Origin: a virus
Length of the DNA stretch: 64,000 nucleotides
Virus record (IMG/VR): IMGVR_UViG_3300023110_001773
Location: 1 to 64,000 of that record
Strand: one strand, 5' to 3'
Part shown: positions 6,768-57,168 of the stretch, piece by piece
Layout: every line of letters begins with the position of its first letter
Position numbering within the stretch: the first letter of the stretch is position 1
Translations under genes and position numbers: made by a program
Notes under the pieces: model-generated
What the model saw: only the letters and a program-made list of their open reading frames with translations
Told to the model about the DNA's origin: nothing
The model's database searches: none

Positions 6768-6799
6768 ATTCACTCTCTCTTTCATCATCTTATGTGGCC

Positions 6800-6828
6800 A
6801 TTATAAGCCATCTGGAAGCAGAAGTCAA
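6800..6828 (-). promoter_or_regulatory. sigma70-type early promoter
   Basis: TTGACT-N17-TATAAT. Confidence 0.9.
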
Positions 6829-15727: not shown

Positions 15728-16704
15728 GCTGCTGACCCCCATACATCTCCCCAGTCACCAGACAATGCACCACGGGCATAGTCTGTTGCTCTGTTCTCAA
15801 AGAAGTTTGTGTGAGTAGGAGCATTAATCATTTCCTCGACCCAAAGCAGAGGATTCTTCTTCACCTTGAAGATACCCTTCATACCAAGAGAGATCAATCT
15901 GCGGTCTGCAATGTAACGAATATATTTTTTAACATCTTCGTTTGATAGTCCCTCCATTGGGCCCATGGCAAATGCGAGATCAATAAACTTGTCTTCCAGT
16001 GCAACCATCTTTTCTGCAATGGTGTAAATAGATGACTTCAATTTGTCGTTCCACAGTTCAAGATTCTCTTCTACATATGTGCGGAACAGTTTGATCATAG
16101 ACTCGGCGTGCATTGTTTCGTCTACAATAGACCAAGTAACAATCTGGCCCATGCCCTTCATCTTACCGTGTCGTGGAAAGTTCAACAACATAATGAAAGA
16201 GGAGAACAACTGCATACCCTCAGTAAACGCAGAGAATGCGGCAATGTTTGTTGCTACTGATTCCTTGGTGCCATTCTGATTTGATAGGTCTGTAAAGTAA
16301 TCATGCTTATCACGCATTGCTTCATACTCAAGGAATTCATTGTATGTTGACTCTGGCATTCCGAGTGTTTCAATGAGGTGAGAATAAGCCGCAACATGTA
16401 ATGCCTCTCTTGCAGCAAATCCTGCGAGCATCATGCGTACTTCTGGTTGTGGAAAATATGGCAGATAGTTTGTTACATAACCACCGGCAACATCAATGTC
16501 ACCCTGCGTAAAGAAACGAAAGATGTTAGTAAGAAACGCCTGTTCTTCTTTTGATAATTTGTTTTTCCAGTCTTTTACATCTTCTGCCATGGGAACTTCA
16601 GTGTGCAACCAATGAGACTGTTCATGTTTCAACCACGCCTCGTATGCCCAAGGATAGTTGAATGGTTTGAAGTAAGTTCTTTCTTGTGTTAAATCGGTTT
16701 TCAC
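15724..16704 (-). CDS. nrdB: ribonucleotide reductase class Ia beta subunit
   Basis: FTQGD, EALH..AY, EGMQLFSSF, DETMH, NFFE. Confidence 0.97.
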   Translation of the reverse strand: MKTDLTQERTYFKPFNYPWAYEAWLKHEQSHWLHTEVPMAEDVKDWKNKLSKEEQAFLTNIFRFFTQGDIDVAGGYVTNYLPYFPQPEVRMMLAGFAAREALHVAAYSHLIETLGMPESTYNEFLEYEAMRDKHDYFTDLSNQNGTKESVATNIAAFSAFTEGMQLFSSFIMLLNFPRHGKMKGMGQIVTWSIVDETMHAESMIKLFRTYVEENLELWNDKLKSSIYTIAEKMVALEDKFIDLAFAMGPMEGLSNEDVKKYIRYIADRRLISLGMKGIFKVKKNPLLWVEEMINAPTHTNFFENRATDYARGALSGDWGDVWGSAA

Positions 16705-16713
16705 ACTCTCTCC

Positions 16714-38437: not shown

Positions 38438-38514
<77 letters not shown>

Positions 38515-38519
38515 AAAAA

Positions 38520-38798
38520 TTATAACTTATCTACAATGGTTTTAATTTCTGGAGTATTTTCATCCAAACCAAGAGATTTTGCATAGTTTAACTGATTTGT
38601 CTCAACTTTTTTCAAACCCAAAACATGTCTAGCTTCATCACGAACTTCAGCAGAACAAGAAAAACCAAATTTATCTGGGTCTAAAAGAGACCAGATAAAT
38701 GTATATGCTTCAAGAATATTCTGTGCAACTTCTGGGTTTGACATCTCTTTGATGCCATCCGCAATTTTGTTTAAATGTTCTTTTGAACTAGAACTCAT
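38520..38798 (-). CDS. hypothetical protein
   Basis: LLDPD.FG..EVRDEAR motif. Confidence 0.7.
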   Translation of the reverse strand: MSSSSKEHLNKIADGIKEMSNPEVAQNILEAYTFIWSLLDPDKFGFSCSAEVRDEARHVLGLKKVETNQLNYAKSLGLDENTPEIKTIVDKL

Positions 38799-40205: not shown

Positions 40206-40239
40206 CAAAAAAACCTCTCTCAACTCAATTTACACATAT

Positions 40240-40268
40240 ATTATGACAGCTATTGGGGCAGATGTCAA
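40240..40268 (-). promoter_or_regulatory. sigma70-type early promoter
   Basis: TTGACA-N17-CATAAT. Confidence 0.85.
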
Positions 40269-48143: not shown

Positions 48144-48560
48144 TTATTTTTTCCTACCAATATTGTATTTAGTGACCAGAGTCCAATCGTTTTTCTCCTT
48201 GTAAGGCAGAATCTTGATCTGACTCATTGGTGCTAATTTTTCCTCTGCAATAGGACTGCAAAGTTCAATCAGACCCCAATCACTCAACAGTTTGGCAATC
48301 GAGTTTCTTCTCATCAAATCATTGTCACTGAGTTCAGCAGACTTACCATCAAGAGCAAAGAGCTCTTTGAAATGGGTGATAAAATACCTACCCTGCTTGT
48401 GCAAGATATGACAAGATTGATATAAGACTTTTTCTTTTTTGGATGCAACACCTATTCTAGATAGGGTTTCTCTCACTTTCAAAAAGTCATCATCATTTTT
48501 TAATTTTATTTCCACTGGAGTATAATCTGGAAAATTAATAGCAAAAAAATCTTCACTCAT
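48144..48560 (-). CDS. regA: translational repressor RegA
   Basis: DDFLKVRETLSRIGVAS, LYQSCHILHKQG, HFKELF. Confidence 0.97.
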   Translation of the reverse strand: MSEDFFAINFPDYTPVEIKLKNDDDFLKVRETLSRIGVASKKEKVLYQSCHILHKQGRYFITHFKELFALDGKSAELSDNDLMRRNSIAKLLSDWGLIELCSPIAEEKLAPMSQIKILPYKEKNDWTLVTKYNIGRKK

Positions 48561-52423: not shown

Positions 52424-52810
52424 TCAAATTTCAAAAGGTTTTTCCAAAATTTCATTTTCTGGCAAACTACACTCAATCCCATGCTTCTTGTGATATTCTA
52501 GAAGACATGGGAAAGAGGTAATTGGAATTCCGTTAAACGGTTCATCACTGATCAATTCTTTAAACTGCCTTTCATAATCATTGTAGTGTTCTTCATCATC
52601 AAAAACCATTGTCCACTTATAAGTCAATCCATCAGATGAAAACGTACTATGGGCCTCAACTCTTTCTTGTTGTCTTAACCAATCATGAAATATCTGTGAT
52701 GCTTTTTTGTGTTCAACAGTTCTTTCTTCTGATTGTTGATACCATTTTGTACTAAGTGTAGGTCTTTTTAAAACATACTCAAGTTTATACATTTTCCGTA
52801 GTATGAGCAA
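52424..52810 (-). CDS. hypothetical protein (possible paralog of 52785..53132)
   Basis: Y....KRP....W ... DG.T....F..E..Y pattern. Confidence 0.65.
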   Translation of the reverse strand: MLILRKMYKLEYVLKRPTLSTKWYQQSEERTVEHKKASQIFHDWLRQQERVEAHSTFSSDGLTYKWTMVFDDEEHYNDYERQFKELISDEPFNGIPITSFPCLLEYHKKHGIECSLPENEILEKPFEI

Positions 52811-53132
52811 TGGTGACGTTATTTGTCGTACAATAATCTAGGAAAGCCTGATCTTGGAATTGGTCTTCAAGACCAGCTGATGTCCAAGCAGAAGTATAAT
52901 CATCGTATGCATCTTCATTAGCAAACATGATATCACAATAAACGGTATTGCCGTCTGGTTCTGCATCAAACACCACATCAGCTTCGTCTCTACCAGTCAA
53001 CCAATCTTGAAATGCAGACGCCTTGGTTTCATAGGTTGATCCTAAGAGGTCAGCTGCCCAAAAAGGCCACTCTACACTCTCAGATTGACGGGTAAATGTA
53101 ATTCTAATTCGATAAGCCATTATTCTCTCCAA
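52785..53132 (-). CDS. hypothetical protein
   Basis: late promoter and GGAGAG RBS. Confidence 0.7.
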   Translation of the reverse strand: MERIMAYRIRITFTRQSESVEWPFWAADLLGSTYETKASAFQDWLTGRDEADVVFDAEPDGNTVYCDIMFANEDAYDDYTSAWTSAGLEDQFQDQAFLDYCTTNNVTIAHTTENV

Positions 53133-53156
53133 AAGTTAAATGGTAATTTACTCTCT

Positions 53157-53164
53157 TATTTATA
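53157..53164 (-). promoter_or_regulatory. T4-type late promoter
   Basis: TATAAATA. Confidence 0.7.
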
Positions 53165-53166
53165 AC

Positions 53167-53238
53167 AAAAAAATCGGGGACTGGCGAATTGAGAGAGAGT
53201 GAGAGAGGCCGCCAGTCCCCGATCCGCCCTAAGGCGGA
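53167..53238 (-). ncRNA. terminator with 14-bp stem and 23-nt CU-rich loop plus a 5' hairpin; candidate 3'-UTR-derived sRNA
   Basis: UCCGCC-UUAG-GGCGGA then AUCGGGGACUGGCG-GCCUCUCUCACUCUCUCUCAAUU-CGCCAGUCCCCGAU-U tract. Confidence 0.55.
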
Positions 53239-53245
53239 ACCTTTA

Positions 53246-53521
53246 CTACTGTTCTAAGTCATGAACATGTAGTGCAATTAACGCATAGTGCAGTACTTTT
53301 AGCAAGTCTTTACGGTTCTTGCCCTCTTTTTTACCATACCTTTGCGTATATTTGATAATATTACCAAGGCAAAATCCTTCGCCATGTCCAGTATCTATAA
53401 CAAACTCGGTGGTTTGTACTTTGTTCTGAGCATAGTGTTCATCATATGTACTATCAACATATGCTTGAAGGTCAGCGATCAGCTGACCCTCATTGTATTT
53501 GTAATCTTTCTTAGAAGTCAT
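53246..53521 (-). CDS. DUF3310-like conserved phage protein (start MTSKKD)
   Basis: YKYNE..TY..HY, GFCLGNIIKY..RYGKK. Confidence 0.8.
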   Translation of the reverse strand: MTSKKDYKYNEGQLIADLQAYVDSTYDEHYAQNKVQTTEFVIDTGHGEGFCLGNIIKYTQRYGKKEGKNRKDLLKVLHYALIALHVHDLEQ

Positions 53522-54695
53522 AGTTATCTGCCTCTGGGTTGTCATCATTCTGGTCTTCAGCAGGGGCATCAAGATCAACACCAGCATCAACCTTGGTGTA
53601 AAGATCGATGAAGGCAGACTTGGTGTCAGTGTCGAAACGGTTGACACACAACTGAATTGCCTTGAGGCGATCTTTGAACATGGCGTATGCCTTGACAATG
53701 TGTTCTAGACGGCGGGTTGAAACCAACTCATCAATGCCACCCTCATAGAAAGTCTTTCGGATCACATCAGCCCACAGTACCAACTTGTCGGCGAATTCAT
53801 CATCAACGCAGTCAGCGACTTCCATCTTGTTGAGAACAATTTTTTTCTCTTGAGCGGAAGACGGGTATTCCTGTTCAACCGTGATTGCGAATCGTTCGAG
53901 GAATGCCTCATCAAGAACCTGAGCACCCATGAACTTACCGTCATCAGAACCACGGCCCTTGGTGTTCGCAGTAGCGATCACATTGAAACCAGAGGCGGGA
54001 GTAACAACTTCGCCAGTCTTTTTGTTGAAGTAGGGTTTGCCTTCAAGGATTGCCTGTAGACACATCAACTTGTTTGATCCACGATCAATCTCATCAAGGA
54101 TCAAGACAGCGCCACGTTTCATGGCAGTCAGCACAGGGCCTTCACGGTAAACTACGTTACCATCAACCAACGTATTGCCACCGATCAGATCATCTTCATC
54201 GGTCTCAATCGAAATGTTGACACGGATTGCCTCACGTTTGAGTTTGGCACAAACCTGTTCAACCATCATGGTTTTACCGTTACCCGACAAACCACAAATG
54301 AATGTAGGATAGAACATACCAGACTTGACAATGTTCACTAGGTCACGATAGAAACCAAAAGGAACATATGTTTTGTCAGCGGCAGGAACTAGGTTTTCAA
54401 TTTCCACAGCAAGTTTCGCCTGAGTTAGAACCCTAGAAGCAGCAGCGGCCACTGGTTCGGGTTGGGTTTGAATAACCGCCACTGGTTTGGTTGGTTTGGG
54501 CATTGACACAACTTGGCCAACCATCTCGGGGTTAAACTGATTGCGGCCAACCTTGGCCTCTTTGAAAAACCACATCGGGTTTTTGAGACCAGCCTCACGG
54601 GCGATATCCATAACTTCAGATTTTGAGAAAATACCCGTCTGGTTGTTAGACTCAGCAAGGGCGGCCATCAGTTGATCTTTCTGTTTAATACTCAT
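53511..54695 (-). CDS. cobS: CobS-like MoxR AAA+ ATPase
   Basis: GLSGNGKT, DEDDLIGG, LDEID, TANTKG, AFLERF, STRRL. Confidence 0.9.
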   Translation of the reverse strand: MSIKQKDQLMAALAESNNQTGIFSKSEVMDIAREAGLKNPMWFFKEAKVGRNQFNPEMVGQVVSMPKPTKPVAVIQTQPEPVAAAASRVLTQAKLAVEIENLVPAADKTYVPFGFYRDLVNIVKSGMFYPTFICGLSGNGKTMMVEQVCAKLKREAIRVNISIETDEDDLIGGNTLVDGNVVYREGPVLTAMKRGAVLILDEIDRGSNKLMCLQAILEGKPYFNKKTGEVVTPASGFNVIATANTKGRGSDDGKFMGAQVLDEAFLERFAITVEQEYPSSAQEKKIVLNKMEVADCVDDEFADKLVLWADVIRKTFYEGGIDELVSTRRLEHIVKAYAMFKDRLKAIQLCVNRFDTDTKSAFIDLYTKVDAGVDLDAPAEDQNDDNPEADNYDF

Positions 54696-54735
54696 AATTT
54701 ACTCTCTCTATTAACTCAATCACTCAACATACTAC

Positions 54736-54765
54736 TAGCTTACTACATCCCGAAGCAGAAGTCAA
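54736..54765 (-). promoter_or_regulatory. sigma70-type early promoter (IHF-like box at 54805-54817)
   Basis: TTGACT-N17-TAAGCT; spacer starts TCTGCTTC as in the 6800 promoter. Confidence 0.75.
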
Positions 54766-57112: not shown

Positions 57113-57139
57113 ATAACTCTCACTCTCAAATACATGTAT

Positions 57140-57168
57140 AGTATGACAGCTATCGAGGCAAAAGTCAA
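57140..57168 (-). promoter_or_regulatory. sigma70-type early promoter (IHF-like box at 57198-57210)
   Basis: TTGACT-N17-CATACT; spacer nearly identical to the 40240 promoter. Confidence 0.8.

Follow-up and report, generated by a model that had tools for sequence, protein, structure and literature searches.

A conserved CU-loop hairpin at the end of an early operon of a marine T4-like phage, a candidate anti-leader RNA

RNA elements that hide ribosome-binding sites

In phage T4, the late genes e, soc, 49 and I-TevI carry a Shine–Dalgarno (SD) sequence that is buried in a simple local hairpin on early RNA, while their late transcripts are translatable. T4 also makes RegB, an endoribonuclease that cuts GGAG in the SD sequences of early messages and thereby shuts them off. 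RNAIII of Staphylococcus aureus is a 514-nt multi-hairpin regulator of host virulence genes that works with short UCCC seeds and is not phage-encoded. To our knowledge, very little has been learnt about regulatory RNAs in lytic phages, and the abundant marine T4-like phages of SAR11- or OM43-type hosts have had none described. As far as we know, these marine phages are also without the T4 middle-mode and RegB machinery.

The alphaproteobacterial small RNAs (sRNAs) of the cuckoo RNA family, CcsR and NfeR1 type have been proposed to occlude ribosome-binding sites (PMC4615179). As in the hairpin described here, their stems vary by compensatory changes while a loop of 9-27 nt keeps a C/U-rich motif resembling an anti-SD; unlike here, the motif (CCUCCUCCC) is presented by two to four adjacent hairpins of a stand-alone bacterial sRNA (PMC4615179). 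Our element has one CU-loop hairpin with a (CU)n motif, comes from a phage and occupies a 3'-UTR, and CCUCCUCCC is absent from it. The 3' hairpins H13 and H14 (the terminator) of RNAIII bear UCCC loops, and there too the apical loop of a terminator hairpin pairs with the SD of its target (PMC4615179). The icaR mRNA of S. aureus has a 3'-UTR anti-SD motif complementary to its own SD, and the loop studied here is likewise complementary to the SD regions of its own transcription unit, with matches of 9 nt in the cobS leader and of 11 nt in that of the peptidase gene; the icaR motif, UCCCCUG, lies outside any terminator loop and has one target (PMC3868564), whereas our loop also matches several unlinked operons. 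T4 late-gene masking shares with this locus a late promoter placed between the inhibitory segment and the SD, but the anti-SD here is carried by the loop of a separate hairpin of very high stability (a pseudoknot-like arrangement), and the cis complementarity is absent in half of the clades that we compared. The likeness to RegB is one of function only (early shut-off), RegB being a protein nuclease. The closest mechanistic parallels known are the cuckoo/CcsR sRNAs, the RNAIII terminator hairpin and the icaR interaction, and the element belongs to none of these families.

The hairpin and the leaders that match its loop

The window, the whole stretch of DNA analysed, covers the initial 64 kb of an IMG/VR virus record (G000) that is 165.6 kb long. 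Almost all of its genes lie on the minus strand, and they include a T4-like set with the gp45 clamp, the gp44 clamp loader and RegA. Judged by cobS, the nearest cultured relatives are Pelagibacter phage HTVC008M and cyanomyophages, at ~51-60 per cent identity. The homologue of the translational repressor RegA is encoded at 48156-48515 of the window (minus; Pfam PF01818, E = 3.8e-46). A search of the genome for RegB, run without a positive control, gave no match, and a gene for ribosomal protein S21 was not found in the phage.

The hairpin closes an early operon (53246-54695, minus) that encodes a cobS-like AAA+ ATPase (53511-54695; Pfam AAA_5/CbbQ_C) and a DUF3310 protein with its stop at 53246. 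When the longest TTG start is used, the DUF3310 reading frame overlaps the cobS-like 3' end by 188 nt (53511-53698); its relatives align only from about residue 50-60, and the true start is probably further downstream. Along the minus strand, the DUF3310 stop is followed by a small hairpin (P1), the long stem and its loop (P2), a U run, the T4-type late promoter TATAAATA, the sequence AGAGAGU, the SD GGAGAGA and an ATG (53120). P1 (CCGCC-UUAG-GGCGG, 53224-53237, minus) starts 9 nt past the stop codon. P2 is a perfect 14-bp stem (53210-53223 with 53173-53186, the element spanning 53173-53223, minus), and its 23-nt loop, GCCUCUCUCACUCUCUCUCAAUU (53187-53209, minus; reverse complement AATTGAGAGAGAGTGAGAGAGGC), displays the CU repeat that is the candidate anti-leader, or anti-SD, sequence. 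The U run UUUUUUG (53166-53172, minus) adds U residues 53167-53172 to the last U of the stem. Small hairpin, perfect stem, long loop and U tract are thus all present as the earlier note had described them, and RNA folding recovered the claimed structure at -41.7 kcal/mol (z = -3.8 against shuffles), with the loop unpaired in both the MFE and the centroid structures. There is one copy of the hairpin per genome. An Rfam search of the element (E <= 10) returned noise only and no family, megablast of the region against GenBank phages gave no match, and the literature searched holds no description of such an RNA.

Like an intrinsic terminator, the element has a G+C-rich stem with a U tract directly behind it, here 14 bp and six U after the last stem U. 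Intrinsic terminators typically have loops of 3-8 nt against 23 nt here, and the element was unreported by our terminator consensus scan, which allowed 3-8-nt loops. The U run and P2 probably form an intrinsic-terminator-like end of the peptidase-cobS-DUF3310 early unit, an end that we infer for this phage only.

The late promoter (53157-53164, minus) lies directly after the U run and precedes a gene of ~111 aa (52785-53120) whose product begins MAY. Directly after the promoter comes the GA box AGAGAGU (53150-53156, minus), a complement to the loop's 3' half. The SD and ATG of the late gene occupy 53118-53130 (minus). The promoter motif occurs twenty-three times in sense and four times in antisense orientation across the genome, and just this one of the twenty-three is followed by AGAGAG. 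The U run and GA box also form an imperfect inverted repeat around the late promoter (53150-53173, minus), which RNAfold pairs through G-U and A-U; the counterpart at L030 is a perfect 10-bp palindrome (CUUCUCUUAU/AUAAGAGAAG) centred on TATAAATA.

The earlier note had proposed that the loop is complementary to the ribosome-binding leaders behind four early promoters with IHF-like boxes, and every one of these matches is exact. Behind the promoter at 6800-6828 (IHF-like boxes upstream; 6771-6828 with its leader, minus), the leader AGAGAGAGUG at 6771-6780 matches over 10 nt (AGAGAGAGTG; -21.4 kcal/mol). The promoter at 40238-40268, with an IHF-like box upstream, is followed by the leader AAUUGAG-U-UGAGAGAGG at 40214-40230 (40214-40268, minus; -21.0 kcal/mol), which matches in two blocks, AATTGAG (40224-40230, 7 nt) and TGAGAGAGG (40214-40222, 9 nt). 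The cobS leader itself, behind the promoter at 54737-54765 (54701-54765, minus), contains AGAGAGAGU at 54701-54709 and matches over 9 nt (AGAGAGAGT; -20.7 kcal/mol). The longest match, 11 nt (GAGAGTGAGAG), is with GAGAGUGAGAG at 57117-57127, the leader of a gene for a 765-aa peptidase behind the promoter at 57138-57168 (57117-57168, minus; -20.1 kcal/mol). All four promoters share TTGAC(A/T)T(C/T)TGC, an extended -35, together with WATCAANNNNTTR-like boxes. Again as claimed, GA-repeat leaders are lacking behind the remaining sigma70-like promoters of the window. The ribosome-binding site of an nrdB-like gene, GAGAGAGUG (16704-16712, minus), is a secondary candidate target with an exact 9-nt match (GAGAGAGTG; -19.0 kcal/mol, rank 8 of 232).

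To rank these leaders we used RNAduplex, pairing the loop with positions -35 to +6 of the 232 called genes of the whole 165.6-kb genome. The median over the 232 leaders is -7.9 kcal/mol, and the four named ones (-20.1 to -21.4 kcal/mol) are all in the top six. The top rank goes to a fifth promoter-proximal leader, at 160600 and thus outside the window (-24.0 kcal/mol), which follows a TTGACATCTGC-type promoter with an IHF-like box. Beyond the four named, two promoters with GA leaders lie outside the window, their leaders being at ~160618 and ~165019 of the genome; these promoters and the late promoter are additions to what the earlier note had reported. Perfect sense-strand matches to the loop of at least 9 nt number seventeen in the genome. 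Seven of them fall within leaders, which make up 4 per cent of positions (a ten-fold enrichment), and the other ten are inside genes. Among sixty composition-preserving shuffles of the loop, none did as well as the real one. The leaders therefore stand above the background of other gene leaders and of shuffled loops, and complementarity to translation-initiation regions in excess of background is a property expected of an sRNA. The GA leaders are not fully independent observations, as they belong to promoter-leader cassettes of a related kind. Both repeats, GA and CU, are also of low complexity, and SD sites are purine-rich regardless.

Conservation, covariation and stand-alone versions

A search based on cobS returned eighty related loci, forty of which carry the hairpin at the same place. 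These represent twenty-six variants in eight clades, with cobS ~67-91 per cent identical, and a pattern scan gave twenty-two more instances; the hairpin is kept in ~50 related viral contigs, and the related contigs derive from open-ocean samples. The earlier note had made conservation of the loop a test of its proposal, and the loop is indeed conserved: the sequence of the stem is unrelated between clades, and the CU tract of the loop persists in all eight despite this turnover (as CCUCUCUCACUCUCUCUC, CCUCUCUCUUACUCUCUC, CCUCUCUCUCCUCUC, CUUCUCUCCUC, CCUCUCUCUC and others). The twenty-four unique stems are 11-24 bp long with 0-2 mismatches, and every stem position, counted from the loop-closing pair as anchor, shows 4-7 pair types. 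MAFFT and RNAalifold applied to whole elements gave no consensus structure, because stems do not keep a common register from clade to clade. In seventeen of the twenty-four stems G-U pairs give the sense strand the greater stability, which argues for an RNA rather than a DNA structure. Twenty-one of twenty-five variants have a counterpart of P1 with changed sequence, and TATAAATA follows the hairpin in all forty loci. In clades D-G the U tract is weak or missing, and what is conserved is therefore not termination. Relatives that are more distant and have no hairpin pass directly from the DUF3310 stop to the late promoter, and we therefore regard the hairpin as an insertion in a subgroup.

What is sought in an sRNA, a conserved single-stranded seed within a conserved structure, is found in this element. 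We conclude that the hairpin is a genuine and conserved element, under selection for its role as an RNA with a specific CU-repeat loop on display. It is a member of an undescribed RNA hairpin family of marine T4-like phages, in which a long stem of free sequence carries a loop of 20-26 nt with a CU tract.

At several loci (L038, L048, L052, L054-L056/L073), CT tracts downstream of cobS were considered as a larger structured RNA and rejected as false positives, since they lie inside a glycosyltransferase-like coding gene. In HTVC008M, the syntenic region between cobS and gp45 has a small hairpin, GUCUUGC/GCAAGAC with the loop CUCUCGUAAAU (L111:4895-4920), ~60 nt upstream of a late promoter (4981). 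Its loop equals the 3' part of the L006 loop, and it may be a reduced homologue.

We then asked how the loops of relatives fit the leaders of their own genomes. In the whole genomes G001 (clade B) and G002 (clade E), the best partners of the own loop are GA-rich leaders just after -10 boxes; those of G002 score -25.1, -24.5, -22.4 and -21.2 against a median of -7.7. No strongly complementary leaders were found in G003, which is 58 per cent complete and has the hairpin. Cognate pairs of loop and cobS leader are on average complementary over 9.2 nt, at -19.0 kcal/mol, as against 7.3 nt and -16.0 kcal/mol for non-cognate pairs (permutation P <= 5e-5, a statistic without phylogenetic correction). 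Some of this pairing is non-repetitive: clade D combines the loop UCCUAACUAUA with the cobS leader UAUAGUUAGGA over 11 nt, and clades E and H combine the loop (U)GACCUCUCUC with the leader GAGAGAGGUC(A). The cobS leader also tracks the loop in clade F (ACUCCUCUC), clade C (UCACUCUCUC) and L006 (CUCUCUCUUA). In the whole-genome matrix of loops by leaders, a cognate preference appears for G002 only and overall specificity is modest, with the loops of clades A and B fitting each other's leaders about as well as their own. The covariation of loop and leaders that the earlier note had named as a check appears at the level of clades for the cobS leader, and across whole genomes a cognate preference is seen for G002 alone.

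The leaders follow another motif, GAAAAGGAAA, in G004 (the record behind L049; loci L103-L110), a relative that has no hairpin at this locus. We looked in G004 for a CU-loop hairpin and for a loop complementary to the GAAAAGGAAA leaders and found neither. It has ~22 near-identical early promoters (TTGACTT...GGTATACTGT), and their leaders share UUUGAAAAGGAAA, not GAGAG.

The pattern scan also found the same 18-20-nt loop in unrelated stems and in another context, in L128, L138 and L172. The IMG/VR contigs L138 and L172 have a TTGACA-N17-TAGTCT promoter, then ~8 nt, the hairpin, a separate short terminator and the next promoter (fold z = -6.5). Among eighty relatives of L138 collected by its endolysin, the RNA gene is in L172 only. 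We rejected an assignment of L138 to a different phage lineage, which its endolysin, similar to those of the CRP roseophages, had suggested; its flank matches HTVC008M and Melnitz, and L138 is therefore also a T4-like marine myophage. The third case, L128:6880-6990, is on an 8.3-kb viral contig that is richer in G+C, where the loop CCUCUCUCUCACUCUCUCUAAA in the hairpin GUCGGACUA/UAGUCCGAC is followed by a second hairpin, an SD and an ATG.

A further version is present in a cultured phage of Methylophilales, Melnitz EXVC044M (MZ577097.1, ~38.51-38.68 kb), as a TTGACT-N17-TATGAT promoter, then the loop ACCUCUCUCUCGACUUUCUCUCUCA closed by a stem of 14 bp, then a terminator. Early leaders nearby contain GAGAAAG(G), the complement of CUUUCUC in the phage's own loop. 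The hypothetical coding sequence 'gene 66' (L262:3216-3395) overlaps this promoter-hairpin-terminator unit (L262:3180-3350; ~38,511-38,681), and the region is probably a small RNA gene rather than a protein gene. The Melnitz paper and the pelagimyophage survey are both silent on such an RNA. As a relative in a cultured phage, now annotated as a protein gene, it opens the family to laboratory testing.

The Melnitz, L138 and L172 RNAs resemble the hairpin studied here in several ways. All come from Kyanoviridae-like marine myophages, all display a CU-repeat loop on a stem of unrelated sequence (14-16 bp; their loops are 24 nt, CCUCUCUCUC...CUCUCUC), and the loop matches GA-rich early leaders of the same phage. 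The variable stem of 11-24 bp and the 20-26-nt loop with a (CU)n tract are common to both forms. Unlike our hairpin, each of these RNAs is transcribed from a sigma70 promoter of its own, is followed by a short terminator hairpin distinct from the CU-loop one, and is located after the endolysin gene. The hairpin here comes at the end of an mRNA, probably serves as its terminator and lies right beside a late promoter; it has no promoter of its own directly upstream, no sigma70-like site being found from the DUF3310 stop to P1. Genes that stand alone, each equipped with a promoter and a terminator, favour an RNA that acts in trans.

Anti-leader pairing and its alternatives

Taken together, the conserved sense-strand structure with its constrained single-stranded loop, the complementarity to early leaders in this phage and in two relatives, the covariation with the cobS leader and the stand-alone homologues partly support the anti-SD RNA interpretation of the earlier note. 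We put the chance at about 0.5 that the hairpin is a base-pairing anti-leader RNA, a candidate drawn from sequence comparison, that damps early messages, is fused to the 3' end of an operon and doubles as its terminator. Counting against this are the size of the loop, 23 nt being uncommon in an efficient terminator, and the lack of conservation of the U tract. An ordinary intrinsic terminator, whose long loop is a chance CT microsatellite and whose leader matches come from low complexity and purine-rich SD sequences, would account for the strong stem, the U run and the repeats. It would not lead one to expect a loop that is kept while stems turn over fully in eight clades, a single copy at a fixed locus with a variable U tract, the poorer performance of shuffled loops, or covariation in non-repetitive sequence. 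This explanation is disfavoured by the comparative data, and we give it very little credence.

The constant neighbourhood of a late promoter and the two-part cis complementarity would fit a role in cis equally well. The CU loop might act purely by masking the GA box and SD of the ~111-aa late gene on read-through early RNA, with late transcripts from TATAAATA lacking the hairpin and being translated. The hairpin is always found directly before the late promoter of one and the same 'MAY...' gene, itself weakly conserved; this holds in clade E as well, where a different gene lies upstream. Since the U tract is not kept in several clades, read-through is to be expected there. Following the T4 rule, late transcription would start ~6 nt past TATAAATA, so that the GA box, peculiar to this one late promoter, would be present mainly in read-through RNA. 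The loop can pair in two parts, through its 3' half with the GA box and through its 5' half with the SD. Among ~126 late leaders this pairing ranks 0-2 for clades A-C and 3-6 for clade G; in this phage it reaches -14.5 kcal/mol (rank 1 of 125 late leaders). Such pairing in four of the eight clades suggests a cis role, which the earlier note did not consider. In clades D, E, F and H, however, the loop fits the downstream leader no better than background and is still conserved, so that the T4-type arrangement, a late promoter between an inhibitory segment and an SD complementary to it, is present here and missing there. Masking in cis also leaves unexplained the covariation of loop and cobS leader, the distant early leaders that are the best partners in G002 (clade E), and the stand-alone versions in L138/L172 and Melnitz, which have their own promoter and terminator and no adjoining late promoter. 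We consider a purely cis-acting element unlikely; given the clades without complementarity and the stand-alone genes without a late promoter, a cis role would be at most a second function.

Two other explanations do without base pairing to messages. The pyrimidine loop could be a ligand or decoy for Rho, ribosomal protein S1 or a phage RNA-binding protein and affect termination, RNA stability or the titration of a factor. Rho primary sites bind YC dinucleotides, and (CU)n is a classical ligand of the Rho/S1 type. A hairpin that displays its loop suits recognition by protein, as does the conservation of 18-20 nt of loop sequence across unrelated stems. We think this improbable, because it explains neither the clade-specific tracking of leaders by the non-repetitive flanks of the loop nor the enrichment of complementary sites at early leaders, and a 23-nt loop is far below the length of a rut site. 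The motif could also act as double-stranded DNA, as a GAGAG-type operator at early promoters (~+5 to +25) that is inverted at the hairpin site, RNA complementarity being a by-product. Loop and leaders do carry the same motif as duplex DNA, and at the early promoters its place, just downstream of the -10 boxes, is typical of an operator. Against an operator, the sense strand reads CU in every hairpin and GA in the leaders without exception, and the motif always occupies the loop of a covarying stem with G-U pairs, which is an RNA signature; the stand-alone versions also resemble RNA genes. A DNA operator is accordingly a still more doubtful explanation than a protein ligand.

Returning to anti-leader pairing, we can outline how it might work. 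The hairpin is fused to the 3' end of early peptidase-cobS-DUF3310 transcripts and, with the U run, probably also ends transcription. Its loop would pair with the GA-repeat ribosome-binding leaders of the first genes behind strong sigma70/IHF-box early promoters, including the two leaders of its own operon. By occluding them, it would lower or stop translation of the earliest messages in step with the build-up of early transcripts. The pairing could occur in trans, if the 3' end outlives decay of the mRNA, or within one molecule, from the 3' end to the 5' leader, and on read-through transcripts the neighbouring late gene's GA box and SD would also lie within reach of the same loop. The stable RNA species, the pairing in vivo and the direction of regulation are all what we infer. 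A broader hypothesis, which we advance tentatively and would not bet on, is that early shut-off in these phages relies on RNA only: a CU loop co-evolving with the GA leaders would silence the immediate-early messages, its own operon included, gate the neighbouring late gene and replace RegB-like proteins, as a mobile module that occurs either as a free gene or fused to a terminator.

Because the loop of a conserved single-copy RNA mirrors the phage's own early leaders, the proposal amounts to a concrete and testable mechanism of early-gene shut-off. The combination of a variable stem and a fixed CU loop is moreover a structural motif that can be searched for in viromes. Outside the window, the genome has a second terminator-like hairpin, GGGAUGUGG / UUUUUUCUUUCUCCUCC / CCACAUCCC followed by U6 (G000:C1:164366-164400, minus), whose long pyrimidine loop contains the canonical anti-SD core CCUCC.
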